Source of the DNA: Chloroflexota bacterium
GTDB taxonomy: Bacteria; Chloroflexota; Dehalococcoidia; SZUA-161; SpSt-899
Direction: 5' to 3'
Assembly: GCA_013203045.1 (NCBI GenBank)
Contig: JABMQN010000004.1
Location: forward strand, 1 to 58,918
Length of the DNA stretch: 58,918 nucleotides
The position numbers and the translations under genes were made by a program. Below, one piece after another: positions 2,897-46,849 of this stretch. Each line of letters opens with the position of its first letter. Positions within the stretch are counted from its first letter, which is position 1. The notes under the pieces were generated by a model, which was not told where the DNA came from, ran no database searches, and was given only the letters and a program-made list of their open reading frames with translations.

Positions 2897-4072
2897 ATGT
2901 CTTTATACTGGTTCAAACAACGGGAAAACATCCTCGCACTTGGTATCGCTCTGATTGTCCTAGTGCTGCACCTCATCATCATCGAGCAGGTCAACGATCT
3001 CATGTTCGATGAAAACCATTACGTCCCGGAAGCTAAATCGATTATCGATCGAGAGGAATTGGACAACCTTGAACACCCGCCTCTCGGCAAAATATTCATT
3101 GCGATTGGTATTGATATTTTCGGAGATAATCCCTTCGGCTGGCGAATCTTCTCCGTCCTTTTTGGAGTTGCTTCTATCGTCCTGTTCTACCTGATCTGCC
3201 AGAAATTGACTTCCAACAAATACATACCTCTCATAGCTACATTCATTTTCGCTTTCGAGAACCAGAGCTTCGTTCAGTCCAGTATGGCTATGCTGGATGT
3301 CTATAGCCTGACATTCATGTTGGCATCGTTTTGGCTATATCTGCGAGGGAATTATGCGCTCTCTGGAATTGCATTAGCATTAGCCACATTAGCCAAGCTC
3401 TCAGGTGTGTTTGGAGGATTCATCATTGTAGGGCACTTGTTGCTTACCAGACGAGACAAATTACGGGATTCACTGGGATTCATGATTGCTGCCCCCCTGG
3501 CATTTTTCGTATTGATGCCTCTATTGGATTATGTAGCGATGGCAGAATGGGTATTTCCATGGGACAGAATTGAGTTCATGCGGGACAATCTCTCGACACT
3601 GACCTTCTCTGATACCGACCATGAAGCGCTCAGCCGTCCCTGGGAATGGATTACATCTACCAAAACTCAGTGGTTCTGGTATGATCCTACGTATCAATCC
3701 AATCCTAACTGGAATTTGTGGGTATTCATCATACCAGCGATATGCTACGCGTTATATGGTGCAATAAAACGTAATTCGCTTTGTATATTCACCTTTTTGT
3801 GGTTCGCCAGCACCTACCTAAGCTGGATAGCTATGTACTTCATCAACGACCGGGTCATGTTCAGATTCTATCTCTACCCCAGTGTTGGTGCTATCTGTCT
3901 GGTAGTTGGATTTGTGTTATACAAGATATGGGTAGTATATTCCCAAAGAGAAAATGCAATGGTAAAGTGGGCACTGCGAGTGCCAGTTATATCATTCCTC
4001 ATAACACACCTTGTCCTGTTCATCCTGATGTCACCTTATTGTGATCTTCGTGTTGGTTCTTGTTGCCCCTGA
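2897..4072 (+). CDS. GT-C / family 39 (PMT-like) lipid-carrier-dependent glycosyltransferase
   Basis: FDENHY, EHPPLGK, PFGWR, MLDVY and SRPWEW motifs. Multiple transmembrane helices. Confidence 0.85.
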   Translation: MSLYWFKQRENILALGIALIVLVLHLIIIEQVNDLMFDENHYVPEAKSIIDREELDNLEHPPLGKIFIAIGIDIFGDNPFGWRIFSVLFGVASIVLFYLICQKLTSNKYIPLIATFIFAFENQSFVQSSMAMLDVYSLTFMLASFWLYLRGNYALSGIALALATLAKLSGVFGGFIIVGHLLLTRRDKLRDSLGFMIAAPLAFFVLMPLLDYVAMAEWVFPWDRIEFMRDNLSTLTFSDTDHEALSRPWEWITSTKTQWFWYDPTYQSNPNWNLWVFIIPAICYALYGAIKRNSLCIFTFLWFASTYLSWIAMYFINDRVMFRFYLYPSVGAICLVVGFVLYKIWVVYSQRENAMVKWALRVPVISFLITHLVLFILMSPYCDLRVGSCCP

Positions 4073-4078
4073 GCACGA

Positions 4079-4750
4079 TTATCCAACAAACACCTCGATT
4101 TTAGCCTTTCCATCAAGCTGGCCAAGTTCGCTGGTAAAGGCCGCCCAGTTAAGTCCCCTGGTCTTCCGGTATTGGTAATGGAGGCTCACCCGGTCGTCCA
4201 GAACGGACATCGTTTGCAGTTTGAGGCCACGCAACCGTTCATTAAGTAAAGAGGTCAGTTTAGGTTCCAATGCTTCAAACGAAGGCTGGTCTACTGAGAC
4301 CATCAAGTTACCACGCCCAAATAAGGTGAACTGCCTGCGGGTCAACCACTGTACAGTCAGGGATATGAATATAATGATGAACAGGATGATCGCCAGTAAA
4401 TAATTATCTGTAGCTGCCAGCACGGATGTCGCAATCAATAAAAGGAGAAACCCTATTTCCGCCGGATCTTTTACCGGTGTCCGGAAACGAACGAATGAGA
4501 GCGCACCCAGCAATCCCAGAGAAAGCGGAATAGAAGTTTGAATGGCCAGGAAAAGGGCCGTTATTGAGGGACCCCCAAGAATGAACGTCCGATGTACACC
4601 GGCTCCAATGTGCCGCGAACCATAGAATAATTGATAGGTAAAATAAATAACTATTGATGCAATTAACGAAAAGCCAACTGCTACAATAGCTTCATCCCAA
4701 AACACCGGAGATTCCAGATTTTCAATATGATCTACTAATTCGTCCCACAC
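4079..4750 (-). CDS. DUF4956-type membrane protein
   Basis: LSLGLLGALSFVRFRTPVKDP signature, 4-5 TM helices plus a C-terminal soluble domain. Directly downstream of the VTC gene. Confidence 0.85.
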   Translation of the reverse strand: MWDELVDHIENLESPVFWDEAIVAVGFSLIASIVIYFTYQLFYGSRHIGAGVHRTFILGGPSITALFLAIQTSIPLSLGLLGALSFVRFRTPVKDPAEIGFLLLLIATSVLAATDNYLLAIILFIIIFISLTVQWLTRRQFTLFGRGNLMVSVDQPSFEALEPKLTSLLNERLRGLKLQTMSVLDDRVSLHYQYRKTRGLNWAAFTSELGQLDGKAKIEVFVG

Positions 4751-4769
4751 AGGTAATCCTCCTTTTTAC

Positions 4770-5561
4770 TTACACATCGCCCACTCTTCCGGAAGGCCAC
4801 AAACGCGCCATAGCCCCCGGGTCTTCCAGATGAGAATCAATGCAATGACTGTATTTCGAGAATCTACTCCAGTCTGTATCGAGTAGTTTCATACGTCTCA
4901 ATGTAGTCGGCAAGTCCATGGTAGGCCCCTTCACCTCAATCACCGCTCCGCGCAACTGGAGTTCTCTTTCCCCATTGCCAAAACCCCGGGCCACAAACGT
5001 AGACCGGATATCATAATCGAGGGAAACTCGAATACCACTGAATATCTCTGTAAACCGATAGCGCGAGTATGAAACAGTTATGATTGGCCGAAGTGGTAGC
5101 TCTGTAAAATGTCCAAATCCTGCAACTGTATCGACGAGTACCTTTCTATCAATTATTCCCTCTCCCACACGATTCTGTTGGAGCGCTTCTGATGCCACTT
5201 GGAATTTCTCCCGCTTTTTACTACTGGCGAAACCACGCCTGGACTTAAGTTCTAAGAAAACCGGTACCGTCTCTGACAGATTTTCTTTTTCGCCATACCA
5301 ACGAATGCGAACTTTGTCTTTGTTATACTCGCCCGCTGCTGATCTTTCGTGCTGATCAAGATCAGGAGTATCGAAATATAGACTGTTGATCCGTCCATGC
5401 GGATACTCTCTATCCGGTCGGCAAAATTGCCGAAGCAGTGCGTAAGCAAGATCAATTCTTTGAGGAATTATATAGAATTTGCGCTCGAATCTTTGCCTGA
5501 ACTGGCCACCCACAGGAGTTGGTTCAGATGTCAATTCGGCATTCGCTAATTGTGATTGCAT
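4770..5561 (-). CDS. VTC-domain (polyphosphate polymerase / CYTH-fold) protein
   Basis: RFERKF, INSLYFDTP, KVRIRWY, LELKSR, RVSLD, VIEVK and FSKY motifs. Confidence 0.88.
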   Translation of the reverse strand: MQSQLANAELTSEPTPVGGQFRQRFERKFYIIPQRIDLAYALLRQFCRPDREYPHGRINSLYFDTPDLDQHERSAAGEYNKDKVRIRWYGEKENLSETVPVFLELKSRRGFASSKKREKFQVASEALQQNRVGEGIIDRKVLVDTVAGFGHFTELPLRPIITVSYSRYRFTEIFSGIRVSLDYDIRSTFVARGFGNGERELQLRGAVIEVKGPTMDLPTTLRRMKLLDTDWSRFSKYSHCIDSHLEDPGAMARLWPSGRVGDV

Positions 5562-5581
5562 ATCCTTCCCAATATATTAAC

Positions 5582-7489
5582 TCATAAAGGTGGTAGAGGG
5601 CCACCCGGAAAATCTCCCATAACGGGCATCCTCATGTCCCCACTACCGCTGCCACTTCCGTCGCCATAGCTTGGCCGCTTACCTTCAAGCTGTTCTTTTA
5701 TCGATTTTGTCCGTTCAACTACAAAGGTCCTCAGACCAATAAACGTCGAACCGGTTGTTGGCACAGCCACGCTTGGTCCTCGCCTGAGGAAAACATCCAT
5801 TTCCTCCCGGCTCAAACAAGATTTCAGCTTCTCAAGCTCTTCGATACTGGGCCGCCGAGTACGCAATTCGTCAAGTACTTCCTTTTCGAATTTACTCTTA
5901 AGACAAGTCAGACTTTCCTCTGAGAGTTGAGGCAAAGGTGTCTGGCCTCCTGGTGGAGGTGGGAATCCTCCCGGTGGTACGAATCCTTCTGGCGAAAATT
6001 CACCCGGCGGTAATCCGCCAGGTGGTGGTCCTTCAGGTAGCATACCCATCGGTGGGGCTCCCCCTTGACCCGATCGCTCCACATCTTGACTAAGACCACG
6101 CTCGAAGTCCTCGTTTGAAAAGAATTTGAGTTCATCTGCATAAACATAGGAATTAATCAAATCAGCGGTTTCATTGATTCGAGAAGTCATCTTTTCAATA
6201 CTGAAAGGCCCATCCAGAAATTCGTCAAGATACTCATAGTACTTCTCTAAATAAGGTTCATAAGTCAGTAAACGTTCAACGAGAGGACGTTCAGCCACAG
6301 GACCGATGGTCGGCTCATCGATATAGCAATTGATAATATCATCGCGGCTCATACCCATGCTGAACGCACCGAATGATCCATTGAGGTCCCAGGGAATGAT
6401 AGTGAATTTGCCGTCAACTTCATAGAGATAGTAGTTGTGCCCGACTCCAAGATAGCTATCGAAATATCCGATCGTTCCCGCCACTGCAACAAATCGAAGA
6501 GCGCTATCAACATCCAGCACCTTTTCGATCTCTTCAGGGAATGTCTCATCCGGCTCATTGTTGAGAACCTCAAGGAAATTTAGCAAGGCCGTATGATCCG
6601 GAAACTCTTCATTTGTTTTGAGCCCCATTTTTTCGATAAAATCCATTGGCTCGCTTTCAGGTGCGTTTGCGCGTCGATTGTCAGTTCCATCTTCTACGTC
6701 TTCTTCCTGCTCTTCCAATGCATTCATAATGTCCACAAGTTTGGCTCCACCCATGTTGATCTGCAGAGCAATTTCTTCATCTTCAGGCGCCGCAATTCCC
6801 AGTTCATCACGCAATTCTTCGAGGTCTTCTTCAGTCCAACTGAGGTAACCAGCAGGGGGTTCCGGTTTGTATAAGTTTCCGCCAACATCGGAGAAGTATC
6901 TATTCAAAAACGTCTTATCCACTTGTTCAACCTGGGTATACAGCCCCATATGCGTATCATTTATCCAGAGGTCAACGAAAGAAGTTTTGGGTGTGGGAAG
7001 GCCCATCAGGTCAAACAACTCATATGAGATGTGTTCGCGGATAAATGTAGGATCATTGAATCCGTTATTGAAATTGAGCTTCTTCAGACCACGAAATGTT
7101 CGGGCCGAATTGAAGAAATTGAAGTCGACTTTGAGGCTGAGTCGAGTGCTTCCCTGCCGAACGACTGAATTGAGCGAAGAGTTACCCTTTGGCCTGACAG
7201 CAACATCCGGAACAAGCTCACCATCGAACCAGAAATCTGCCTGGACATACTCTTCTTCCAACGCATCGAGTTGAAGCGTTTCCCAATCATCATCGCTCAT
7301 CACGATGCGGACTTCCGCCACACGATCGGTGACAAATGGCTCTGGACCATCGCCAGCACTCTCTCCAGAGGCTATTCCGACATATCCCATTAATCCCAGG
7401 CATAGGACTAGTAACGCAACGATCCCTGTTGCTGCTACCCTGTTCTCCCTCCAAATTTCATCGTTACCCATTTTAGTTGATCTGGACAA
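5582..7489 (-). CDS. CotH kinase family protein (membrane-anchored, Pro/Gly-rich insert)
   Basis: VRPKGNSS, SLKVDFN, KLNFNN, GLYTQVEQVD, GNLYK, HNYYLY and IPWDLN motifs. N-terminal TM helix. Start uncertain (7489 or 7471). Confidence 0.9.
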   Translation of the reverse strand: MSRSTKMGNDEIWRENRVAATGIVALLVLCLGLMGYVGIASGESAGDGPEPFVTDRVAEVRIVMSDDDWETLQLDALEEEYVQADFWFDGELVPDVAVRPKGNSSLNSVVRQGSTRLSLKVDFNFFNSARTFRGLKKLNFNNGFNDPTFIREHISYELFDLMGLPTPKTSFVDLWINDTHMGLYTQVEQVDKTFLNRYFSDVGGNLYKPEPPAGYLSWTEEDLEELRDELGIAAPEDEEIALQINMGGAKLVDIMNALEEQEEDVEDGTDNRRANAPESEPMDFIEKMGLKTNEEFPDHTALLNFLEVLNNEPDETFPEEIEKVLDVDSALRFVAVAGTIGYFDSYLGVGHNYYLYEVDGKFTIIPWDLNGSFGAFSMGMSRDDIINCYIDEPTIGPVAERPLVERLLTYEPYLEKYYEYLDEFLDGPFSIEKMTSRINETADLINSYVYADELKFFSNEDFERGLSQDVERSGQGGAPPMGMLPEGPPPGGLPPGEFSPEGFVPPGGFPPPPGGQTPLPQLSEESLTCLKSKFEKEVLDELRTRRPSIEELEKLKSCLSREEMDVFLRRGPSVAVPTTGSTFIGLRTFVVERTKSIKEQLEGKRPSYGDGSGSGSGDMRMPVMGDFPGGPLPPL

Positions 7490-7574
7490 CTATGCCCTGT
7501 CATTGCGAGAAGCAGATACCGCCGCCGCCGATATGCGCCAGGGCAGAAACTCTTTTCATGCCATTCCGGACTTG

Positions 7575-7738
7575 CAGACTGTGTCATAATGTCCTCAAAA
7601 GAGATCCGTTCGTACTGAGCCTGTCGAAGTATGAACGCACTGATCGGCAGGAACCCTTCGATAAACTCAGGGAGAACGGTAATCCCCGGTAATTACAATG
7701 GTAGAATTACTCAGTTTCGTTGATTGTGACACAGTCTG
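7575..7738. mobile_element. 164-bp non-autonomous MITE
   Basis: 16-bp terminal inverted repeats CAGACTGTGTCATAAT / ATTGTGACACAGTCTG with 1 mismatch. No transposase ORF. Flanks are TTG/TCG. Confidence 0.75.
7606..7679. repeat. REP-like hairpin (CCGTTC..CTGAGCCTGTCGAAG / CTTCGATAAACTCAG..GAACGG)
   Basis: Imperfect inverted repeat inside the MITE, resembling a widespread bacterial REP-like family. Confidence 0.75.
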
Positions 7739-7922
7739 TCGATCCGGAATCCATTACCCAGCCACCCCACTGGATTCTGATTTTCATCAAGAATGACATA
7801 TCGGGGTTTTATTTCCCATTTGTTCGGTGATAATACTCATTTCAGGTGTAAGTTTCTGAGTAGTCCTTCCGGTACTAACTCATATTAGACTAAAAAGATG
7901 AACGCCAGATGAACCGGTTGAG

Positions 7923-9416
7923 TCAAGCTTTATCCGGATCACCCCCATTTCCGCTTCCATCACCGGAACTGGGCAATTCACCATCAAGTTGCATTCTTAC
8001 TGATTCACCACGTTCAGCCACAAATGACTTGAGTCCAAAATATCTTCCTTGTCTTTCGGATAGATTGTATTCAAAATCCTCGGTTGGGTAGAATTTAAGC
8101 TCATCTGCTTCAACGTAAGGACGGATCATATCCGCAATCTCATCAATTCGAGATTCCATTGTCTCGACGGAGAACGGACCCGCTAACAACTCTTCAAGGT
8201 ATCCATGATATGCATCTAAATACGGCTGATATGACAGGAGTCGATAAACGAGCGGGCGTTCAACCACTGGACCACACGTGGGTTCATCGATAAAGAAATT
8301 GATGATTTCCTCACGTGGTATATTACATTTGTACGTGCCGAACGACTCGTTCAGGTCCCATGGAATAATGACGAACCTACCGTTAATTTCATAGAGATAG
8401 TAGTTGAGCCCCCTTCCAAGATAGCTATCCAGATTCACAAGAATCGTCTGCACAGCCAGAAACCGGAGAGCTTCATCAACATCTAATACCTTCTCAATCT
8501 CCTCCGGGAAGGTTTCATCCGGTTCGTTGTTGAGAACATCCAGAAATCGCATGAGTGCCGAGTGATTGGGTCGGTTTTCGTTGGTTTTTAACTTCATGTA
8601 ATCGAGATATTCATATTGGTGTTTTTCCGGCTCATCTTCGATCTCAGTAGCATCATACTGTTGTTCCGTTCCCAGAGCTTGCTCAATCTGGCTCAGGTCA
8701 CCACCACCAAGATTTACCTCATAAGCATCAGGGGAAACTGTTGGAGAACCCGTCGCCATTTCAGATCTCTGCTTTTCCAGAGCCTCTTCATCCCAATTTA
8801 AATATGAACCGGGGGGAATCGGCTTGTACAGATTTCCATCTGCGCGACCAAAATGCTGTGTGAGGAAAGTCCTGTCAACGTGATCTACCTGCGTATATAG
8901 ACCCATATGCGTATCATTCACCCAAAGATTAACAAACGACGTGCGAGGAGCAGTAACTCCCATTTCCCGGAAAAGCTCATAGGCGAGACTTTCACGTATA
9001 AGTGTTGGATCACGAAAACCATTGTGAAAATTCAATTTTTTTAGGCCACGAAATTGGCGCGCATCGTTTAGTAGATTGAAATCAACTTTGAGGCTCAATC
9101 TAATACTCCCATCCTCAATTACATACTTTAGCGACGAACTCCCTTTTGCCCGTACAGCCACGTCAGGTACCAGTTCGCTATCGAACCAGAAATCTATCTG
9201 ATAATATTGCTCTTTTTCTGCTCTCGACTGAAGGTTCTTCCACAACTCCGGTTTCATATAAAAATAGACATCAACCACACGATCAGTGACGAACGCGTCT
9301 CCGTCCCTGGAAGGGACCTGCATTGATGTCCTTTCCTGGCATCCCGTCACTCCAATACCTGCCAGTACTATCATCAATAGCAGGCTCGTCAGGACTATAT
9401 TGATTGCTTTACTCAT
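7923..9416 (-). CDS. CotH kinase family lipoprotein
   Basis: Lipobox-like GVTG-C. VRAKGSSS, KLNFHN, GNLYK, NYYLY and IPWDLN motifs. Clear paralog of 5582-7489. Confidence 0.9.
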   Translation of the reverse strand: MSKAINIVLTSLLLMIVLAGIGVTGCQERTSMQVPSRDGDAFVTDRVVDVYFYMKPELWKNLQSRAEKEQYYQIDFWFDSELVPDVAVRAKGSSSLKYVIEDGSIRLSLKVDFNLLNDARQFRGLKKLNFHNGFRDPTLIRESLAYELFREMGVTAPRTSFVNLWVNDTHMGLYTQVDHVDRTFLTQHFGRADGNLYKPIPPGSYLNWDEEALEKQRSEMATGSPTVSPDAYEVNLGGGDLSQIEQALGTEQQYDATEIEDEPEKHQYEYLDYMKLKTNENRPNHSALMRFLDVLNNEPDETFPEEIEKVLDVDEALRFLAVQTILVNLDSYLGRGLNYYLYEINGRFVIIPWDLNESFGTYKCNIPREEIINFFIDEPTCGPVVERPLVYRLLSYQPYLDAYHGYLEELLAGPFSVETMESRIDEIADMIRPYVEADELKFYPTEDFEYNLSERQGRYFGLKSFVAERGESVRMQLDGELPSSGDGSGNGGDPDKA

Positions 9417-9462: not shown

Positions 9463-10707
9463 TTACAGGTATGCGGAAATTGGCTCTACCGTGAGGATTT
9501 GCCTGGTGATATCCGGATATTGGGCAATGAATCTGAGTTCCACATCTAACAGCGATTTCTGATTGTGCAGACTCGCATAGCGAACCAAATCGAGGATTTC
9601 ACTGGCATGATTATCATTTTCAAACTCAATCCCCATCCGAAAGTAGACACTTCGAAGCCCCTTTATCCCAGAGTATTCGCCCACAGTAATCTCTTGCCCG
9701 GTGCTAATGATTTCCGGTTCCCCACGGCCCACATCCTCCAAGTTATACAACTCATACGTCTTCCTGTTTTCAAGCGCTCCGGCAGCATGGATTCCGGATT
9801 CATGTGCAAAAGCATTTGCACCCATCGCAGGTTGATTGATAGGAATAGGAATTCCCAGAGCATACGAAACATATTTGCACAATCGATATGCCACATCAAG
9901 CTTTATCCTGTCATCGACACCATAATGCTCCAACCCACAACCATGCTTCAGTGCAAGGATCACCGAAATTGTGTCTGCGTTTCCCGCACGTTCTCCGATA
10001 CCATTAATACAGGTATTTACGTACACATCAGATCCACTATCAATCGCGGCCTTCGCCCCCGCAACAGAATTGGCTACCGCCATTCCAATATCATTGTGGC
10101 AATGGACCTCTATCCCCATTTTAAGTTGCGAAGCGAGATTCGTAATACGTTCATAGATCGAAAACGGTGTTTCGCACCCTACTGTGTCACAATACCGCAA
10201 TCGATCCGCTCCGGCAGATTCGGCTGCTCCAGCAAATTCGATAAGGTAATCCATATCTGAACGAGAAGCATCCTCAGCATTCACACCAACAGAAATCGCC
10301 CCTCTTTCTTTAGCCAACTTGACAGCTTCAATCATTGTTGCGATTACGTCATCGTGGCTGAACTTCCCTCCGAATTTGTGTTCGATCATGATGTCAGATG
10401 TGGAAATCGAAAGATTAACATGTTTCAATGCGGGACAATTGGAAAACGCCAGTTCCACATCCCCGGGAATGGCCCGGAGCCATCCACTCAATCGAGTATT
10501 TGTGATAATACCGCGTTCAACAAGTTCCAGATTTGCATTCAAATAGTTGATTTCATGCGACGTAATCGGAAACCCGAACTCACTTTGAAAAACTCCAAGT
10601 TCATCCAGATAGAGATCAAGTATGGTTTTTTGAAATTTTGACAAGCAAATACGAGGCGCCTGGACGCCATCCCTATTTGTAACATCAATAATGTAAGCTG
10701 TAGCCAC
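9463..10707 (-). CDS. DRE-TIM metallolyase, homocitrate-synthase-like, probably Re-citrate synthase
   Basis: [31 protein letters not shown] and FAHESGIH motifs. From memory it resembles the Dehalococcoides Re-citrate synthase type (QSEFGFP motif). Confidence 0.75.
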   Translation of the reverse strand: MATAYIIDVTNRDGVQAPRICLSKFQKTILDLYLDELGVFQSEFGFPITSHEINYLNANLELVERGIITNTRLSGWLRAIPGDVELAFSNCPALKHVNLSISTSDIMIEHKFGGKFSHDDVIATMIEAVKLAKERGAISVGVNAEDASRSDMDYLIEFAGAAESAGADRLRYCDTVGCETPFSIYERITNLASQLKMGIEVHCHNDIGMAVANSVAGAKAAIDSGSDVYVNTCINGIGERAGNADTISVILALKHGCGLEHYGVDDRIKLDVAYRLCKYVSYALGIPIPINQPAMGANAFAHESGIHAAGALENRKTYELYNLEDVGRGEPEIISTGQEITVGEYSGIKGLRSVYFRMGIEFENDNHASEILDLVRYASLHNQKSLLDVELRFIAQYPDITRQILTVEPISAYL

Positions 10708-15995: not shown

Positions 15996-17510
15996 ATGGA
16001 TAAGGTCATCATATTCGATACAACACTTCGTGATGGGGAGCAATCCGCAGGCGCAGCTCTGACGATTTCTGAAAAGCTAGAGATCGCCCGCCAGCTGGAG
16101 AAGCTGGGCGTAGATGTTATCGAAGCTGGCTTCCCGATCGCTTCCCCCGGTGATCTTGAGGCAGTTCGCAATATTTCAAAGGAGATACGCGGATCGTCGA
16201 TCTGTGCCTTGTCCCACGCCCAACCTCAGGCCGTGGATACCGCATGGGAAGGGATCAAAGATGCTGCGGAACCACGTATCCACGTGTTTCTTTCCTCTTC
16301 GGAAATTCACATGTCCCATCAGCTTCGGAAGAATCGCGATCAGGTCCTGGAGCAGGCACGCGCCATGGTGGCACGCGCCAAGAAACATCTTGATAATGTG
16401 GAATTCTCACCTATGGATGCTACCCGCACAGACCGCAAATTCCTCTATCAACTACTGCGAGCCGTGATCGATGCCGGTGCTACTACCGTGAACATACCGG
16501 ATACCGTTGGATATACCATGCCTAAGGAATTCGGGAGTTTGATTCAGGGGATCAAGCGAAACGTAGACAATATTGAAAAGGCTGTAATCAGTGTGCACTG
16601 TCACAATGATCTGGGCCTGGCAGTTGCCAATAGCCTGGCTGCCATCGATAGCGGTGCGCGACAGATCGAATGTACCGTGAATGGTATTGGGGAACGTGCC
16701 GGAAATGCTTCGATGGAAGAGATCGTGATGGCAATAAAAACCCGTCATGATTTAATGAAATATTCCACCGATATCAATACAGAACGGATATACAAGACCA
16801 GTCGTCTGGTAAGCGATTTCACTGGCATGTACGTCCAGCCCAACAAGGCAATCGTTGGAGCCAATGCTTTTCGCCACGAATCAGGCATTCATCAAGACGG
16901 TATCATCAAGGAACGAACCACTTACGAGATTATGGACCCTGAATCAATCGGGCTCTCTGGAACGACGCTCTCTCTGGGCAAACTCAGTGGACGCCATGCT
17001 TTCAGGAAGCGACTTGAATCACTCGGATATGCACTGAGTGACGATGAAATCAATCGAACATTTGCCGCCTTCAAGGAGTTGGCCGATAAGAAAAAAGAAA
17101 TCACTGATCGCGATCTTGAGGCCATTATAAGTGAGGAATTAAGAACTATTTCTGAAATCTACCACCTGGAACAGGTACAGGTCTCTTGTGGTGATCTCAC
17201 TATGCCCACAGCCTCCGTCAGACTGACCGGCCCTGATGGCAAAATCCTTTCTGATGCTGCACAAGGAACCGGTCCTGTTGATGCAGTCTACAGGGCTATT
17301 AACCGGCTGGTCAAGGTTCCCAATGAACTCATCGAATTCAGTGTCAAATCGGTCACTGAAGGTATTGATGCAATCGGTGAGGTTACCATTAGAATAGAAA
17401 GCGAAGGTAAGCGATACGCCGGGCGCGGCGCTCACACAGACATAATTGTGGCCAGTGCCAGGGCATACATGAATGCCCTGAACCGCCTGCTGGTCACTAA
17501 AGGAGAGTGA
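15996..17510 (+). CDS. leuA: 2-isopropylmalate synthase
   Basis: [16 protein letters not shown] and HESGIHQDG motifs, plus the C-terminal regulatory GPVDA domain. Confidence 0.96.
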
Positions 17511-17944
17511 TGGACATTGCGATAGACGCGGGAATGGAGTTCGAGATCATGTTGCGCGTCTTCGTGGCGGCAGTTCTGGGTGGGGGTATAGGATTGCAGA
17601 GAGGGCTGGCCAGGAAATCTGCCGGGATACGCACTCACGCTCTAATTTGTCTTGGCGCCGCTTTGTTTACCTCGGTAGCAGAGGGATTTGAAACCGTACA
17701 GGGATTCGATCCATCAAGGATTGCCGCCGGTGTGGTCACCGGAATCGGATTCGTCGGGGCTGGAGTGATCCTCCGCTCTGAGACAGGCAGGGTAGAAGGA
17801 GTAACCACAGCAGCCAGCATCTGGGCAACAGCGGCTGTTGGAGTAGCCATCGGTACAGGCCTATATATTGTTGGGACATTTACGGCCATCCTTGCCGGTA
17901 CTGTTATGGCAGTCCGCTTATTATTGAATAAAAAACCCAAGTAG
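17510..17944 (+). CDS. MgtC/SapB family membrane protein
   Basis: AGIRTH, DPSRIAAGVVTGIGFVGAG and GVTTAASIW motifs. TGATG overlap with leuA. Confidence 0.92.
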   Translation: MDIAIDAGMEFEIMLRVFVAAVLGGGIGLQRGLARKSAGIRTHALICLGAALFTSVAEGFETVQGFDPSRIAAGVVTGIGFVGAGVILRSETGRVEGVTTAASIWATAAVGVAIGTGLYIVGTFTAILAGTVMAVRLLLNKKPK

Positions 17945-19925: not shown

Positions 19926-20037
19926 ATGCATCTCCGCAGGCCACTGAAACAATAGTGCTCGAAATTTGAGAGAATCAATGTTGAGTGCAAGCAAACAAAA
20001 TTGCAAATCAAATACTTGCCAAATCAAAGAGGAGATT

Positions 20038-22281
20038 ATGGCTATCCTCCAATCCCATGGGGAAGATGAAAAATCATTGGAAAGAAAGGCTTTGTATAAA
20101 CTTACCAAATACTTGCTCACAAATAATGGTATTGAGTTACCTTTCTGCCAAAGAACTATGCAGGAGTTTGAAGTAACTTTTGATGAAGATATTGAAAAAC
20201 ATATAAAAAGCAAGATTTGTCAATTTAATATTATAGATCAGTATATGCCAGATGTTTTATGTGAGTATATTGATGCGGAACAAAAAAAGAAGTCACATGG
20301 AGAAGTATATACGCCCAAAGATGTCATTGAATTAATGATGTTCCGTGTAAAGACTTATATGAACTTCAGAGGTAAGGATATTTGTGATTATGCATCAGGG
20401 AACGGGGCGATTTTATACAATATAGCGAAGCAATATAAATCAATCAAATCCCTCGATGGAGTTGACGTTCAGCCATTTTCAACTCATTTAACCTTTGCAA
20501 ATGCTTGTCTAGCAAATACTGAAATCCACCACAAAGTACGCTCGATGACGTTTGATATCATTTTAGAGCGAGAAAGCTACGATAAAAAGTACGATCTCGT
20601 TATAAGTAATCCTCCATATATAGGTCAAAAAAATAACCAAGTCTTATTTGAACCACTCAAAACACATAAGTTCTGGTCTAGTTTTTACACATCGAAATCT
20701 GACTACCTATACTTTTTCATCATTCAAGCAATCGAATTATTAAAACCCAAAGGTATAGCATGCTTGATCACAACTCAATATTGGCTTACAGCAACCAAAG
20801 GAAACAAACTTAGAAAGTATCTAGCGGATAATGTAGATATATTAGAAATACATAATTTTGGAAATATTAAATTGTTTCCGAATGCTGGTGGGCAGGAAAA
20901 TATCATAATTCTAATGCAAAAAAGAACAGAAAAAGATATTCCCCCAAGTGATCGTAGTTTTTTATACATAACCTACGACAACTTATGGACCAAAAGCAAT
21001 TCTGCATTATGGTCAAATAAAAGGAAAGTGAGCAAGGTGATATCTTCTATCCTTTCGGGAGATAAAGTAAATGACCTTTATTCAGGTATGGTTACAATCG
21101 AAAAAACCTCTCTAACTGAGCAGGAATCAAATGGTTCTCCATGGCATCTGGAAAAGTCTGAAAGCGACATTGAAACTAAATCAAGGGAGACACCTATAGC
21201 TGATATTGTTACTATTCAGCCCGGTATTCAAACAGGATCAGATAAAGTTAATAGGAAGAACAAATTTGTTAAAGAAAACGAATCACTACTACCCAAATTA
21301 GGATACCATATTGGTGACGGAATTTATGTGCTTACCGAAGAAGAACTCAAATCGCTTAAACTCAATAGAAAAGAAAAAACCATTGTTAAGCCATTTTATA
21401 AAGTTGGCCAACTCAATATAAACGGGGTCAGCCATAATTTAAAACATTATCTAATACATGCCGAAATGATAGAAGATATTAACCAATATCCAAACATCCA
21501 AAAACACCTCGAAAAATTTAGAGATATATTAAATGTCAGGTATAAGACCTACGCCTTAGTTAATAATGAAAAAATTGGAAAGTGGTGGAAACTTGTCGGG
21601 GCAAGGCCTGATATACCATATGAGGGCGAAAAGATAATAAGTCCATCGCGTGCAAAAGAGCCATTTTTCCTGTATTCCAATAAAGAATTCTATTCATCTA
21701 TGGATGTTTTTTATACATACTCTACCAAAGAAGATGATCTGATTTCTCTTAAATTTATTGCAGCTTATCTAAATTCAGATAGCTGCATTGAATATTTGAA
21801 GAGGAATTGTAAAAAGAAAGGGATAAAGTATGAACTTTATAAAGAACCCCTTTCCAATTTACCGTTCCCCACGTTTAACAACGGGAAATCGAAAAGACTT
21901 AAATTCCATGATTTTATTGCTGGTAGATATTCACTTATAGAAAAAGAGGGGTTATCATACTGTGAAGCATCTAACACATGGATAGCAGTGCCAGGTATAT
22001 ATGATTATTTATTGAGGATTCAATATAGATTAAAACTTATTGAAGATAAATATCTATTAAAAGACTTAACTTTCAACCTACCCGATGATTTGGCCAGAAT
22101 AACCAATTGTGATGAAGTATTGTTTGTCGAGAATGCATTAAAAGAAATCTCAGATCAGGATCGCAAATATTTGACAGAATGCGCAAAAAATACAGTTAAC
22201 CCTGTTAATAAATATAAACAAAATTTGTCAGCACTAAAATACCTATTGAACCAAGTGGTTAATGAAATTCTAACTATATAA
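20038..22281 (+). CDS. Gamma-class N6-adenine DNA methyltransferase with C-terminal target-recognition domain
   Basis: GEVYTP (motif X), DYASGNG (I), ISNPPY (IV), DYLYFF and LRKYL motifs, plus a TaqI_C-like tail (AAYLNS). ATG 20038 with GAGGAG RBS. Very AT-rich. Confidence 0.9.
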   Translation: MAILQSHGEDEKSLERKALYKLTKYLLTNNGIELPFCQRTMQEFEVTFDEDIEKHIKSKICQFNIIDQYMPDVLCEYIDAEQKKKSHGEVYTPKDVIELMMFRVKTYMNFRGKDICDYASGNGAILYNIAKQYKSIKSLDGVDVQPFSTHLTFANACLANTEIHHKVRSMTFDIILERESYDKKYDLVISNPPYIGQKNNQVLFEPLKTHKFWSSFYTSKSDYLYFFIIQAIELLKPKGIACLITTQYWLTATKGNKLRKYLADNVDILEIHNFGNIKLFPNAGGQENIIILMQKRTEKDIPPSDRSFLYITYDNLWTKSNSALWSNKRKVSKVISSILSGDKVNDLYSGMVTIEKTSLTEQESNGSPWHLEKSESDIETKSRETPIADIVTIQPGIQTGSDKVNRKNKFVKENESLLPKLGYHIGDGIYVLTEEELKSLKLNRKEKTIVKPFYKVGQLNINGVSHNLKHYLIHAEMIEDINQYPNIQKHLEKFRDILNVRYKTYALVNNEKIGKWWKLVGARPDIPYEGEKIISPSRAKEPFFLYSNKEFYSSMDVFYTYSTKEDDLISLKFIAAYLNSDSCIEYLKRNCKKKGIKYELYKEPLSNLPFPTFNNGKSKRLKFHDFIAGRYSLIEKEGLSYCEASNTWIAVPGIYDYLLRIQYRLKLIEDKYLLKDLTFNLPDDLARITNCDEVLFVENALKEISDQDRKYLTECAKNTVNPVNKYKQNLSALKYLLNQVVNEILTI

Positions 22282-22299
22282 CTTTTGTGTTTTTACTAA

Positions 22300-23025
22300 A
22301 TGCATATGAATGAAGAAACATTGGAATTAGCAACGAACGACCTCATTAAACTTTTTAGTTCAGCGTTGAAAGGTAGTGAACTTAAAATATCTTTTAACTG
22401 GGAAGTCTCTGAGAAAACAGTATCAGAGATTGGTGGGCGACCAATTGAGGATTACATATTAACTTCATTGCCTAATGAGCTCAATAATGAAGTAGAAGGA
22501 CTTTCAGGGACGTTTACTAATTGCACCGTACCAAAGTCTCAAAGAGCCATGGAAGACATAGGGTTTACTTGGTTATCACCTGATGGCAAAAAATCAATTG
22601 AATTATTGATTGATGTAAAGGGGCACAACGAGACAAAAACAGGTTCAAGACCAAATCTTGCATCAATTAGAAAGTGCAGAGAATTTTACACCGCTTCAGA
22701 TAAGAAAGAACTTTGGATATTTTATTGCAGATACACTCCAAAAGTAGACGGTAGTTCAATCAATACTAATATTTCCTATAAGCTAGAAGATGGGTCTTTT
22801 GAAGAAAAAGGATTATTTTTGTTAAGAAGACTTAGCGATAACAATATGGATCCAGCTGATATCGGTAGCGGTGGACAAATATTATTTGCGCGAGAACATG
22901 AAATCGAACTAATAGATCGGGATAGGGGAAATATGGTCAAATTCTTGGATAGTCTAACTGATCATCTTTTAAAACTTAGGGAAAATAGAAAACAAAAAAA
23001 GAAGACGAATTTAAAGAACACATAA
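22300..23025 (+). CDS. Putative PD-(D/E)xK type II restriction endonuclease
   Basis: E..., EDIG...LIDVK...RPNLAS pattern reminiscent of HincII-type enzymes. 18 bp after the MTase, with the same low GC. Confidence 0.6.
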   Translation: MHMNEETLELATNDLIKLFSSALKGSELKISFNWEVSEKTVSEIGGRPIEDYILTSLPNELNNEVEGLSGTFTNCTVPKSQRAMEDIGFTWLSPDGKKSIELLIDVKGHNETKTGSRPNLASIRKCREFYTASDKKELWIFYCRYTPKVDGSSINTNISYKLEDGSFEEKGLFLLRRLSDNNMDPADIGSGGQILFAREHEIELIDRDRGNMVKFLDSLTDHLLKLRENRKQKKKTNLKNT

Positions 23026-44171: not shown

Positions 44172-44507
44172 ATGAGTATATACGGTATGAGCGACAATGC
44201 CATTCTGCGCGAGATCGGCGATCGCTTAAAAAGCAAACGACTATCGCGAAACCTGTCTCAGCAAAGGCTGGCCGAAAACAGCGGACTGAACCGCACGACT
44301 GTGCGTGACATTGAGAAAGGAAACAACTCCAGTCTGCTAACGCTTATTCAATTACTGCGGGGGCTTCATTCACTGGAAGAATTCGATTCATTTCTGCCGG
44401 AGCCGGGGGTCAGCCCCCTACAGCTCGCTAAAATGAAAGGAAAACAACGTCGTCGAGCATCACCCCGAAAGGCAGCTAGGAAAGACGAAAGGGAGGCTGA
44501 TTGGTAA
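44172..44507 (+). CDS. XRE HTH antitoxin (HipB-like)
   Basis: LSQQRLAENSGLNRTTVRDIEKG and SPLQLAK..GKQRRRAS. Overlaps the toxin gene. Confidence 0.85.
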   Translation: MSIYGMSDNAILREIGDRLKSKRLSRNLSQQRLAENSGLNRTTVRDIEKGNNSSLLTLIQLLRGLHSLEEFDSFLPEPGVSPLQLAKMKGKQRRRASPRKAARKDEREADW

Positions 44508-45805
44508 CAACAGTCGATACGGCGTATGTCCGACTATGGGGCAAGTTGATGGGTGCAGTCTCATGGGACCCGGAAAAGCAACTGGGTACATTTGAGTATG
44601 ATCGAGATTTCCTCAAAATGGGTTTAGACCCATCACCTGTCCACATGCCTGTAGAGCAAGCCCGCATAGGCGAGCCCAGGTACGAATTCCGAACGCTCCC
44701 CCGGAAAACCTTCATGGGATTGCCGGGACTACTCGCGGATGCCCTGCCCGACAGGTTTGGTAACGCGGTGATTAATTCATGGCTTGCAGGACAGGGCCGC
44801 ACTGAAGATAGTTTCAGTCCGGTGGAACGGTTATGCTACATCGGCAAGCGTGCTATGGGCGCCATGGAGTTTTCTCCAGTTTTAAATCCATCAATTGACA
44901 GGTCAGTTCTAGTTGAGATTGAAGAACTGCTAATGCTTGCTCAGACGGTTATAAATGAACGTTCGGAGCTTAGAGCGAACCTGGAGCCAAAATCCTCTGA
45001 AGCCATGCTGAATATCATTCGCGTTGGCACCTCTGCAGGTGGGAACAGGCCCAAAGCGGTTATCGCGTTAAACGACGAAACAAAGGAAGTTCGCTCAGGC
45101 CAGGTGGAAGCCCCGGACGGATTCGACTACTGGGTGCTGAAGTTCGATGGAGTAAAGGACAACGCCCTCGGCGATCCCGCCGGATATGGCCGCATCGAAT
45201 ATGCATATTCAAAAATGGCTGTAAAGGCAGGCATTACTATGACCGAATGTCGCATCCTTGAGGAGAATGGGCGCGCGCATTTCATGACTAAACGGTTCGA
45301 CCGGCCCAGGGGCGGGGAAAAACTTCATATGCAGTCTCTATGCGCCATGGCACACTTTGATTTCAATGATTCGGGCGCTTACTCATATGAGCAAGCTTTC
45401 CAGGTCATACGGGAGCTTAGACTGAACTATGATGCTGTGGAGCAGCAGTTCCGGCGCATGGTATTCAATATTGTTGCCCGCAATCAAGACGATCACACGA
45501 AGAATATAGCCTTTCTCATGGACACAAACGGTCAATGGCGCCTTTCACCTGCCTTCGATGTGATTTACTCATTCAACCCTGAAGGCATGTGGACGAGCAA
45601 TCATCAAATGACGATTCGGGGTAAACGCGATGGCATTACCATGAAGGATTTGGCAGAGGTTGGCGCCGAACAGAGCATAAAACGAAGTGAGGCGATCATC
45701 GATGAAATCGTTGAAGTGGTAGCAAACTGGCCGGACTTTGCAAGGGAAGCGGGGGTTCAAGCCCGGCAAATCAAGTCGATCGGCGAAACCCATCGATCCG
45801 GTTGA
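44501..45805 (+). CDS. hipA: HipA-family kinase toxin
   Basis: DALPDRFG, SAGGNRPK, KRFDR, NQDDHTKN and LSPAFD motifs. Confidence 0.9.
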   Translation: MVTTVDTAYVRLWGKLMGAVSWDPEKQLGTFEYDRDFLKMGLDPSPVHMPVEQARIGEPRYEFRTLPRKTFMGLPGLLADALPDRFGNAVINSWLAGQGRTEDSFSPVERLCYIGKRAMGAMEFSPVLNPSIDRSVLVEIEELLMLAQTVINERSELRANLEPKSSEAMLNIIRVGTSAGGNRPKAVIALNDETKEVRSGQVEAPDGFDYWVLKFDGVKDNALGDPAGYGRIEYAYSKMAVKAGITMTECRILEENGRAHFMTKRFDRPRGGEKLHMQSLCAMAHFDFNDSGAYSYEQAFQVIRELRLNYDAVEQQFRRMVFNIVARNQDDHTKNIAFLMDTNGQWRLSPAFDVIYSFNPEGMWTSNHQMTIRGKRDGITMKDLAEVGAEQSIKRSEAIIDEIVEVVANWPDFAREAGVQARQIKSIGETHRSG

Positions 45806-45921: not shown

Positions 45922-46845
45922 CTATTTCCCAATGACAGCTTTCAAACCTGCACCTTCACAGATTTCCTTCAACTTTTCAACTTTGCTATCTTCCAGTCTC
46001 TCTAGCTGTTCTAGCGGATAGGTCCTGCCTAAACGCTCATAACTTGGAGTTCCCCATTCATGATAAGGTAGAAGGGAAACCTGTTCAGCGCCAATTCCCA
46101 CTCCAAATTCAGCTAACTGCTGAATGTTTTCCTCAGAATCATTGAACTGGGGAATCAGTGGAACTCTTATCCACAGTCTCTTTTTGGCAGCAGCTTTGCG
46201 AGCGTTTTCCAAGATCAAAGCGTTGCTTTGCCCTGTTCCAGTGATATGTCTACCTGCATCCATATGCTTGATATCAAACAAAACCAGATCAGCATATTCG
46301 AGCACACTTTCCATCACTTCCCATTTGGCAAACCCGCAGGTATCCAACGCAGCATGAAGACTTTTGTCTTTGAGTGCCTTAAATAGCTCTCGCGTGAAAG
46401 TGGGCTGGCTCAACGGCTCACCACCAGATACAGTGACGCCACCACCGGAATTTTTGTAGAACGGTTCGTCACTCATAACCTCTTTCACTACTTCATCGAC
46501 TGTCATGTATTCGCCGGCAATTACAATCGACCCGCTGGGGCACACTTCTCCACACTTCAGGCAAAGATCACACTTATCGCGATGAATTACACGACCCTGC
46601 AACGGATCAGCCGTGATTGCTTCAACCGGGCAAACTTCTACACATTTATCACAAGCAATGCATTTCTGGTCATAGGTCATGATCTCAGGATGAGGTTGTT
46701 GTGATTCGGGGGTGCTGCACCACTGACAAAGTAAAGGACACCCCTTCAAAAAGACGGTGTCCCTTATCCCAGGTCCATCATGGACCGTAAATCGTTGAAT
46801 CCTTAGTATGAGCCCTTTTGGCTCTTTTTCCTCTGCTTGCGCCAA
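45922..46845 (-). CDS. Glycyl-radical enzyme activating protein (with ferredoxin insert)
   Basis: HDGPGIR, KGCPLLCQWC, two CxxCxxCxxxC, SGGEP and LLPYH motifs. Confidence 0.94.
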   Translation of the reverse strand: MAQAEEKEPKGLILRIQRFTVHDGPGIRDTVFLKGCPLLCQWCSTPESQQPHPEIMTYDQKCIACDKCVEVCPVEAITADPLQGRVIHRDKCDLCLKCGEVCPSGSIVIAGEYMTVDEVVKEVMSDEPFYKNSGGGVTVSGGEPLSQPTFTRELFKALKDKSLHAALDTCGFAKWEVMESVLEYADLVLFDIKHMDAGRHITGTGQSNALILENARKAAAKKRLWIRVPLIPQFNDSEENIQQLAEFGVGIGAEQVSLLPYHEWGTPSYERLGRTYPLEQLERLEDSKVEKLKEICEGAGLKAVIGK

Positions 46846-46849
46846 TCAA

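Follow-up and report, generated by a model that had tools for sequence, protein, structure and literature searches.

A stretch of 58,918 nucleotides (nt) from a Chloroflexota genome of the class Dehalococcoidia (contig JABMQN010000004.1, positions 1 to 58,918, assembly GCA_013203045.1), called the window below, contains a locus of four co-oriented genes on the minus strand. They encode two CotH-family proteins, a VTC-domain protein and a DUF4956 membrane protein, in the order CotH1-CotH2-VTC-DUF4956. CotH1 (9416–7923) is a predicted lipoprotein of 497 amino acids (aa) with a lipobox, and CotH2 (7489–5582) has 635 aa and an N-terminal membrane anchor or signal peptide; both belong to Pfam PF08757. 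The VTC-domain protein (5561–4770, 263 aa, PF09359) is a candidate polyphosphate polymerase, and the DUF4956 protein (4750–4079, 223 aa, PF16316) is its candidate partner in the membrane. This gene content and orientation had been given in a preliminary description of the window, and both are confirmed by the open reading frames (ORFs) and by Pfam matches above the curated cut-offs. The NCBIfam library has no model matching any of the four proteins. The assembly has 3.97 Mb in 277 contigs and is 92.55% complete, and no CotH, VTC or DUF4956 gene was found in it outside this locus. The names carried by the closest VTC homologues also point to Chloroflexota and Dehalococcoidia.

The preliminary description gave a spacing of about 20 bp. 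According to the coordinates, the gap is 20 nt between the CotH2 and VTC genes and 19 nt between the VTC and DUF4956 genes, in agreement with that figure. Left unmentioned was a non-coding spacer of 433 nt (7490–7922) between cotH1 and cotH2. No ORF of at least 80 aa lies wholly within this spacer, and a plus-strand ORF of 94 aa (7305–7589) overlaps its edge. An Rfam search of the entire window, spacer included, gave no match, and a scan for promoters and terminators found no such site in the spacer. When the spacer was compared by BLAST with the window and all of the loci collected below, only self matches and one match of 27 nt were returned. Loci elsewhere with two cotH genes have shorter spacers between them, of about 76–160 nt.

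Predicted proteins of the locus

Both CotH proteins match PF08757 well above the curated cut-off of 23.8 bits (CotH1, E-value 1.2e-66, 225.8 bits; CotH2, E-value 6.9e-64, 216.8 bits). The two are paralogues with 56% identity over 460 aa, and CotH2 differs by a Pro/Gly-rich, Cys-containing insert of ~105 aa near its C-terminus (residues ~476–582). The N-terminus of CotH1 consists of a hydrophobic stretch followed by a V-T-G-C lipobox with Cys26, and the genome encodes both Lgt and LspA. CotH2, the length of which is counted from a TTG codon with an ATG 18 nt downstream, has a single N-terminal hydrophobic segment (15-mer Kyte-Doolittle hydropathy 2.68) and no lipobox. These features bear out the earlier assignment of one lipoprotein and one anchored protein, both exported. 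The same type of N-terminus is common in the clade – an N-terminal hydrophobic segment is present in 57 of the 59 full-length CotH ORFs, and a loose pattern detects a lipobox-like motif in 49 of them.

The catalytic residues of the family are present. CotH1 aligns with the CotH protein of Bacillus cereus (5jd9, E-value 1.7e-23), with D330, N338 and D354 aligned. D330 is the catalytic Asp and corresponds to D228 of the Bacillus subtilis protein, and D354 is the metal-binding Asp and corresponds to D251; both of the B. subtilis residues are essential (PMC7821199). CotH2 carries the same Asp-Asn-Asp motifs. All three residues are invariant in the 59 full-length CotH sequences of the clade, and therefore CotH1 and CotH2 are best regarded as enzymes under selection rather than pseudokinases. 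The sequence features support a prediction that both are exported, membrane-tethered, kinase-like enzymes of the CotH family.

The VTC-domain protein matches PF09359 with an E-value of 7e-23 and 81.8 bits (cut-off 23), and is thus assigned by Pfam to VTC and not to CYTH. It has no transmembrane (TM) segment and no SPX domain, the VTC domain being the only one that Pfam finds, and no long, fused VTC relatives were found, which is weak evidence. In a HMMER alignment with yeast Vtc4, K28 corresponds to K200, R85 to R264, R87 to R266, K106 to K281, Y165 to Y359 and R167 to R361. These six residues of Vtc4 bind triphosphate, and mutating them lowers polyphosphate in yeast (bioRxiv 10.1101/2023.01.27.525886). 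All six are invariant in 59 VTC orthologues, as are E209, K211, S235 and K236, so the basic and acidic CYTH-fold motifs had been correctly described as intact. In the same report, K458 of Vtc4 is replaced by I or L in the inactive Vtc2/3 (bioRxiv 10.1101/2023.01.27.525886).

The structure predicted for the VTC protein by AlphaFold2 (AF2) has a predicted local distance difference test score (pLDDT) of 85.8. Its best matches are yeast Vtc2 (3g3o, Z 17.5) and Vtc4 (3g3r, Z 17.2), over 211–213 residues, and in the structure search residues 23–261 align to residues 195–480 of Vtc4. Other tunnel metalloenzymes match at Z 14.7 at most. The motif near the N-terminus is R24-x-E26-x-K28, compared to R196-x-T198-x-K200 in Vtc4 and an ancestral E-x-E-x-K. 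It is plausible from the sequence and the model that the protein is a cytoplasmic triphosphate-tunnel enzyme of the Vtc4 type, and a candidate polyphosphate polymerase.

The DUF4956 protein matches PF16316 with an E-value of 8.4e-13 and 48.8 bits (cut-off 30.6), and all 70 of the aligned orthologues match this family as well. The AF2 model (pLDDT 76.9) has five predicted helices (18–42, 52–70, 74–87, 96–113 and 117–138), followed by a C-terminal domain (146–222) with a beta-alpha-beta-beta-alpha-beta arrangement, which is ACT-like or ferredoxin-like and is predicted to be cytoplasmic. In fold searches only this C-terminal domain found solved folds – ACT domains, ferredoxin-like domains and the C-terminal domains of MgtC proteins (2lqj, 7qa5). 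The membrane part matched no solved fold, which does not by itself make the fold novel. Net charges across the 70 orthologues are −2.26 for the N-terminus, +0.93 for the loop at 43–51, +2.0 for 88–95 and +1.9 for 139–146; this pattern fits a predicted topology of five spans with the N-terminus outside and the C-terminus inside. The motif F86-x-R-F-R-T-P-x-K-D-P-A-E-I-G100 is invariant, and because of the loop charges it is placed at the cytoplasmic face.

Homology of DUF4956 to MgtC was considered and is not supported. None of the 70 members matched Pfam MgtC (PF02308), even at E-values up to 5, and an hhalign comparison with the window's own MgtC protein gave a probability of 0.08. A weak Atlas lead between DUF4956 and MgtC, at 0.78, was below the lead threshold. 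Prediction of a 1:1 complex of the VTC and DUF4956 proteins, each with its own alignment, scored 0.01 against a mark of 0.32, which is not evidence either way.

Distribution and linkage of the three families

Relatives of the VTC protein were collected from one genome per species. There were 156 confirmed relatives, of which the 80 best loci were retained; almost all are from Dehalococcoidia, and two are from Planctomycetota. Their ORFs were searched with the proteins of the window. DUF4956 directly follows VTC in 75 of the 78 loci with room for it. CotH directly precedes VTC in 63 of 77 loci, 62 of which were found by script and one by eye (L091, in which the CotH gene is masked by an over-long ORF call). 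At least two cotH genes are present in 8 of the 80 loci. When all 826 neighbouring ORFs were clustered, every further family was confined to at most 16 of the 80 loci. One of these alone was suggestive, that of the carbohydrate-binding protein Cthe_2159, which occurs in 9 of the 80, mostly right after DUF4956. This beta-helix protein (L036:3242–5317, for example, and 8 further loci) is absent from the present window. In three of the loci without CotH (L026, L027 and L049), genes for a MoxR ATPase, a DUF58 protein and a DUF4129 protein lie directly upstream of VTC-DUF4956 and are co-oriented with it.

In a set of 41 relatives, VTC and CotH were found in the same 7 genomes, belonging to two of 21 genera, and DUF4956 was found in 6 of those 7. 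No statistic is given for this set, as its members are kin and not independent. The exception is genome G019, in which no DUF4956 was found and CotH remains. Its VTC protein (L068:9995–11956, 653 aa) was tried as a Rosetta-stone fusion and rejected – the VTC domain is truncated before the S-K motif and is joined to unrelated sequence with no Pfam match. The cassette in this genome appears to have decayed, or the assembly to be chimeric. Overall the cassette is an accessory one, passed on or lost as a whole.

A similar association is found in a second phylum. Among 101 genomes of Planctomycetota, 24 have VTC, 26 have DUF4956 (including all 24 with VTC) and 26 have CotH (including 23 of the 24), and 74 have neither VTC nor CotH. 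There are 34 VTC genes in these genomes, with DUF4956 within 5 kb of 29 of them and CotH within 10 kb of 22. The gene order varies among the planctomycete loci, and one low-GC planctomycete has a DUF4956-CotH-VTC operon in which the stop and start codons overlap. That the linkage is kept despite this reshuffling argues for a functional relationship. On the survey counts the linkage of the three families goes far beyond chance adjacency, which was rejected, and the co-occurrence that the preliminary description mentioned for other bacteria is seen to be conserved in both Chloroflexota and Planctomycetota. Four of the planctomycete genomes (G055, G056, G140 and G088) have an expanded set of CotH proteins, with 8–13 matches per genome, which are very long and multidomain and are mostly not encoded beside VTC.

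Beyond these phyla, 14 reference genomes were searched. VTC and DUF4956 were found in the same three – Bacteroides thetaiotaomicron, Corynebacterium glutamicum and Methanosarcina acetivorans – and all three also have CotH, while B. subtilis has CotH alone. A DUF4956 profile matched 3437 representative clusters among 1.84 billion at E-values up to 1e-3. In a plasmid collection there was one weak match, to a Nonomuraea replicon of chromosomal size.

Rare fusion proteins join members of the trio. P0122 is a fusion of VTC with DUF4956. P0127, of 1173 aa on one metagenome contig, consists of an LTD domain, a chitobiase-type domain, CotH and DUF4956, with no further TM segment separating the CotH ectodomain from the first helix of DUF4956; this agrees with an external N-terminus for DUF4956 and with closeness of CotH and DUF4956. 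Carbohydrate-type domains are fused to CotH both in P0127 and at locus L093. Two other fusions, P0125 and P0123, look frameshifted.

The genome, at its 92.55% completeness, yielded none of the other familiar enzymes of polyphosphate metabolism (PPK1, PPK2 or PPX), so the VTC protein is the only recognisable polyphosphate enzyme there. The ORFs of the window include no pel-type genes, and a search of 21 genomes, the present one and 20 relatives, found no PelG. Gram-positive pel loci in Firmicutes and Actinobacteria have been reported to carry cotH, polyphosphate-polymerase and DUF4956 genes, in some cases with DUF4832, as accessory genes, and the available text of that report offers no mechanism for them (Whitfield et al. 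2020, PMC7112168). SIR_1592-1594 of Streptococcus intermedius are likewise a trio of pel accessory genes, described as being of unknown function (PMC12345266). The CotH proteins of these pel loci are predicted to be secreted (PMC7112168, PMC12345266), and the streptococcal DUF4956 homologue is described as MgtC-like, with 4 TM segments and an intracellular ACT domain (PMC12345266). In S. intermedius, deletion of the DUF4956 gene or of the CotH gene reduced Pel-dependent aggregation, by over 50% in one medium (PMC12345266). Members of the same families are also adjacent in NELoc-2 of Clostridium perfringens, with the membrane protein labelled otherwise.

In literature searches, neither bacterial VTC-domain proteins nor DUF4956 turned up as the subject of a biochemical or functional study. 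The preliminary description, which knew of no functional characterisation, was nearly right; the trio is in print as a set of pel accessory genes, with deletion phenotypes and no biochemistry. The authors of the 2025 mBio study of S. intermedius state that the trio was not found away from the Pel locus (PMC12345266). The present window and the surveyed loci are cases of the trio outside pel. The locus represents a variant, independent of Pel, of a cassette that is known but not characterised.

A possible route for polyphosphate to the cell surface

Taken together, the three families very likely form one functional unit. The explanation that best accounts for the locus as a whole is a module of the cytoplasmic membrane, in a member of the Dehalococcoidia that has only this one membrane, running from VTC through DUF4956 to CotH; we give it a probability of roughly 45%. 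As a first step, judging by its conserved residues and fold, the soluble VTC protein would act like yeast Vtc4 and build polyphosphate from the gamma-phosphate of ATP. The growing chain would then be received by DUF4956, at the invariant, basic loop on its cytoplasmic side (R88, R90 and K94), and passed to the outer face, a step suggested by the near-obligate adjacency of the two genes, the predicted topology and the analogy with the yeast VTC complex. The membrane protein is probably oligomeric, and its ACT-like domain may serve as a regulatory sensor. By the same analogy it is plausible that the soluble enzyme and DUF4956 are a split synthase and translocase, and we put even odds on this pair both making polyphosphate and moving it outward.

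Outside the cell, the two tethered CotH phosphotransferases would act on or with polyphosphate, in a compartment without ATP. The most likely action would be to use it as the phosphoryl donor in modifying a surface protein or glycan. The export-type N-termini of CotH and the lack of an evident ATP source outside a single-membrane cell favour such a donor. Even so, that CotH draws on polyphosphate in this way is doubtful, and equally doubtful is the complete scheme, in which polyphosphate from VTC, threaded through DUF4956, would feed tethered CotH proteins as an ATP-independent kinase system for surface proteins or glycans. As the acceptor, a glycan is as likely as a protein, given the published association with pel, the Cthe_2159 genes next to some of the loci and the fusion of carbohydrate-type domains to some CotH proteins.

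A number of observations weigh against this explanation. VTC-DUF4956 has no adjacent CotH in 14 of the 77 loci, where its neighbours are unrelated. CotH is encoded elsewhere in 6 of these genomes; in the other 8 no CotH was found genome-wide, in assemblies of unstated completeness. Since the pair occurs in genomes in which no CotH was found, CotH is not obligatory, and a strict dependency between VTC and CotH is weakened. The core is the VTC-DUF4956 pair, to which CotH is often added as a client that can be dispensed with. The deletions in S. intermedius also weaken such a dependency, because loss of VTC had no reported aggregation defect in the part of the study available, unlike loss of DUF4956 or CotH, and the DUF4956 and CotH deletions shifted Pel levels in opposite directions (PMC12345266). 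CotH of Bacillus works with ATP, and B. subtilis has neither VTC nor DUF4956. At the present locus, given the 433-nt gap, cotH1 may not be co-transcribed with the other three genes; a look for RNA runs that contain the locus listed none.

Other points of the same kind concern the proteins themselves. DUF4956 has no similarity to the membrane domain of yeast VTC; for this reason, and because its membrane part has no match among solved folds, a DUF4956 channel is conjecture. E209, S235 and K236 of the VTC protein should be the equivalents of the Mn-binding E426, S457 and K458 of Vtc4, an assignment made by the order and spacing of motifs and the span of the structural alignment, not by residue-level alignment; such an alignment of the C-terminal third to solved Vtc4 gave no match, either with the single sequence or with a profile of 29 sequences. 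The fusion proteins are all singletons on single contigs and could reflect lost stop codons or artefacts. Finally, we infer every step of the mechanism from sequence, fold, synteny and analogy.

Among the alternatives, the one that survives best is that polyphosphate is itself the end product. VTC-DUF4956 would extrude it as a polyanion of the surface or matrix, where it would bind cations or cross-link cationic polymers such as Pel, and the kinase-fold CotH would handle polyphosphate rather than be a kinase fed by it, attaching, trimming or capping the chain on a surface glycan or protein. The loci and genomes with VTC-DUF4956 and no CotH are what would be expected if the product is valuable alone, and links to glycans recur, in the pel operons of Gram-positives (PMC7112168) and in the Cthe_2159 genes. 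The carbohydrate-type domains fused to CotH (P0127, L093) fit as well, and so does a gene for a GT-C/PMT-type glycosyltransferase (2897–4072, plus strand), which is convergent with the DUF4956 gene across a gap of 6 nt. The latter arrangement is shared with the three closest kin (L012, L013 and L015), to the exclusion of the other loci, and could be either a pointer to a glycan acceptor or mere synteny. Against this alternative, we know of no kinase-fold enzyme that ligates polyphosphate, the invariant Asp-Asn-Asp triad fits plain phosphoryl transfer equally well, and no polyphosphate-binding domain was identified. We consider it unlikely.

Somewhat less probable again is that the products are internal. 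The VTC protein would make cytoplasmic polyphosphate or regulate phosphate, DUF4956 would be an MgtC-like membrane sensor or regulator, and the exported CotH proteins would be co-regulated envelope factors with another donor. The C-terminal domain of DUF4956 does resemble ACT domains and the C-domain of MgtC, and the streptococcal homologue has been read as MgtC-like with an ACT domain (PMC12345266); with no PPK1 or PPK2 found, VTC could simply be the polyphosphate synthase of the genome; and deletion of VTC in S. intermedius did not copy the CotH and DUF4956 phenotypes (PMC12345266). An internal role is harder to reconcile with the tight linkage to a gene for an exported enzyme, which persists across phyla although the gene order changes, and with the existence of a CotH-DUF4956 fusion (P0127). 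The comparisons above gave no sequence relationship between DUF4956 and MgtC, no PPX that would draw on an internal store was found in the genome, and it is difficult to name another donor outside a cell with a single membrane.

It is least probable that the VTC protein is not a polymerase but, like most bacterial tunnel metalloenzymes, a triphosphate or nucleotide hydrolase or a cyclase that powers or signals to DUF4956. In favour of this, the bacterial and archaeal tunnel enzymes solved to date, which match its model at Z 12–14.7, have triphosphatase or cyclase activity, and the protein retains one of the glutamates of the ancestral E-x-E-x-K (E26, where Vtc4 has T198). Against it, Pfam places the protein in VTC and not CYTH, its best structural matches are Vtc2 and Vtc4 over the full length, and the full basic set of Vtc4 is invariant, including the likely equivalent of K458 that is absent from the inactive Vtc2/3.

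The module of VTC, DUF4956 and CotH is kept as the working explanation. How bacteria might phosphorylate extracellular molecules without ATP is an open question, and so is the role of many secreted CotH-family proteins. A Vtc4-like enzyme, a membrane protein and exported kinases form a concrete hypothesis on both questions that is testable in vitro. The gene set has already been published, and this is not its first sighting; what the present window adds is a cassette outside any pel context, a genome with no other recognisable polyphosphate enzyme, and a VTC-DUF4956 core.

Gene neighbourhood and comparison with known systems

The locus adjoins a divergent ilv/leu cluster. A short gene similar to LeuA and homocitrate synthase (9463–10707, minus strand) is co-oriented with the locus and ends 46 nt upstream of cotH1. 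Its product has HMGL-like and HCS_D2 domains without a LeuA_dimer domain and is below the cut-off of every NCBIfam equivalog; the gene is part of the ilv/leu cluster and is divergent from ilvD. An MgtC-family gene (17507–17944, plus strand, 145 aa) overlaps the end of leuA by 4 nt, an odd position for a membrane-protein gene, inside a biosynthetic cluster. Directly after an aconitase-family (LeuC-like) gene are an Eco57I/TaqI-type N6 DNA methylase of 771 aa and an ORF of 241 aa with no Pfam match (19966–23025, plus strand), which resemble the insertion of a restriction-modification system in the leu cluster. Farther along the window there is a toxin-antitoxin pair (44172–45805, plus strand), made up of a helix-turn-helix protein (HipB-like) and a HipA kinase, and then a PFL-like glycyl-radical enzyme of 803 aa with its radical-SAM activase (45922–49261, minus strand). 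A similar pair of glycyl-radical enzyme and activase is found upstream of a VTC locus without CotH (L018).

The closest known system in gene content is the pel accessory set, in which the same three families are adjacent, as here. That set is contiguous with pelDEADAFG, whereas the present locus has no pel operon; it encodes a pair of CotH paralogues and lacks both DUF4832 and an FN3 domain. The MgtC family resembles DUF4956 in being composed of small membrane proteins with a C-terminal ACT-like domain, but has no sequence relationship to it.

For the CotH proteins there are two points of comparison. Kinases of the Fam20 type, in the secretory pathway, have a kinase fold and phosphorylate proteins or glycans outside the cytosol, using ATP imported into the Golgi lumen. 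We know of no comparable supply of ATP outside the bacterial membrane. Fam20-type kinases have been named as distant relatives of CotH (PMC7821199). The CotH proteins of Bacillus (B. subtilis; B. cereus 5jd9) have the same catalytic and metal-binding Asp residues as those of the window. They use ATP inside the mother cell and have no signal peptide, in contrast to the predicted anchoring of CotH1 and CotH2 outside a non-sporulating cell.

The yeast VTC complex (Vtc4/Vtc3/Vtc1; 3g3q, 7ytj, 8i6v) offers the nearest parallel for the VTC-DUF4956 pair. It has the same triphosphate-binding residues, the closest fold and a paired membrane protein, and it couples synthesis to translocation away from the cytosol, although at the present locus the target would be the cell exterior. 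Compared to Vtc4, there is no N-terminal SPX domain and no C-terminal domain of three TM segments, and the catalytic domain stands by itself as a soluble protein. The partner is also different – DUF4956, with its five helices and ACT-like domain, is unrelated to the three-TM domain of the Vtc proteins – and an exported kinase-fold enzyme has been added. If the proposed function is true, bacteria would have in this locus an equivalent of the yeast VTC synthase-translocase, with an unrelated protein in the membrane role.

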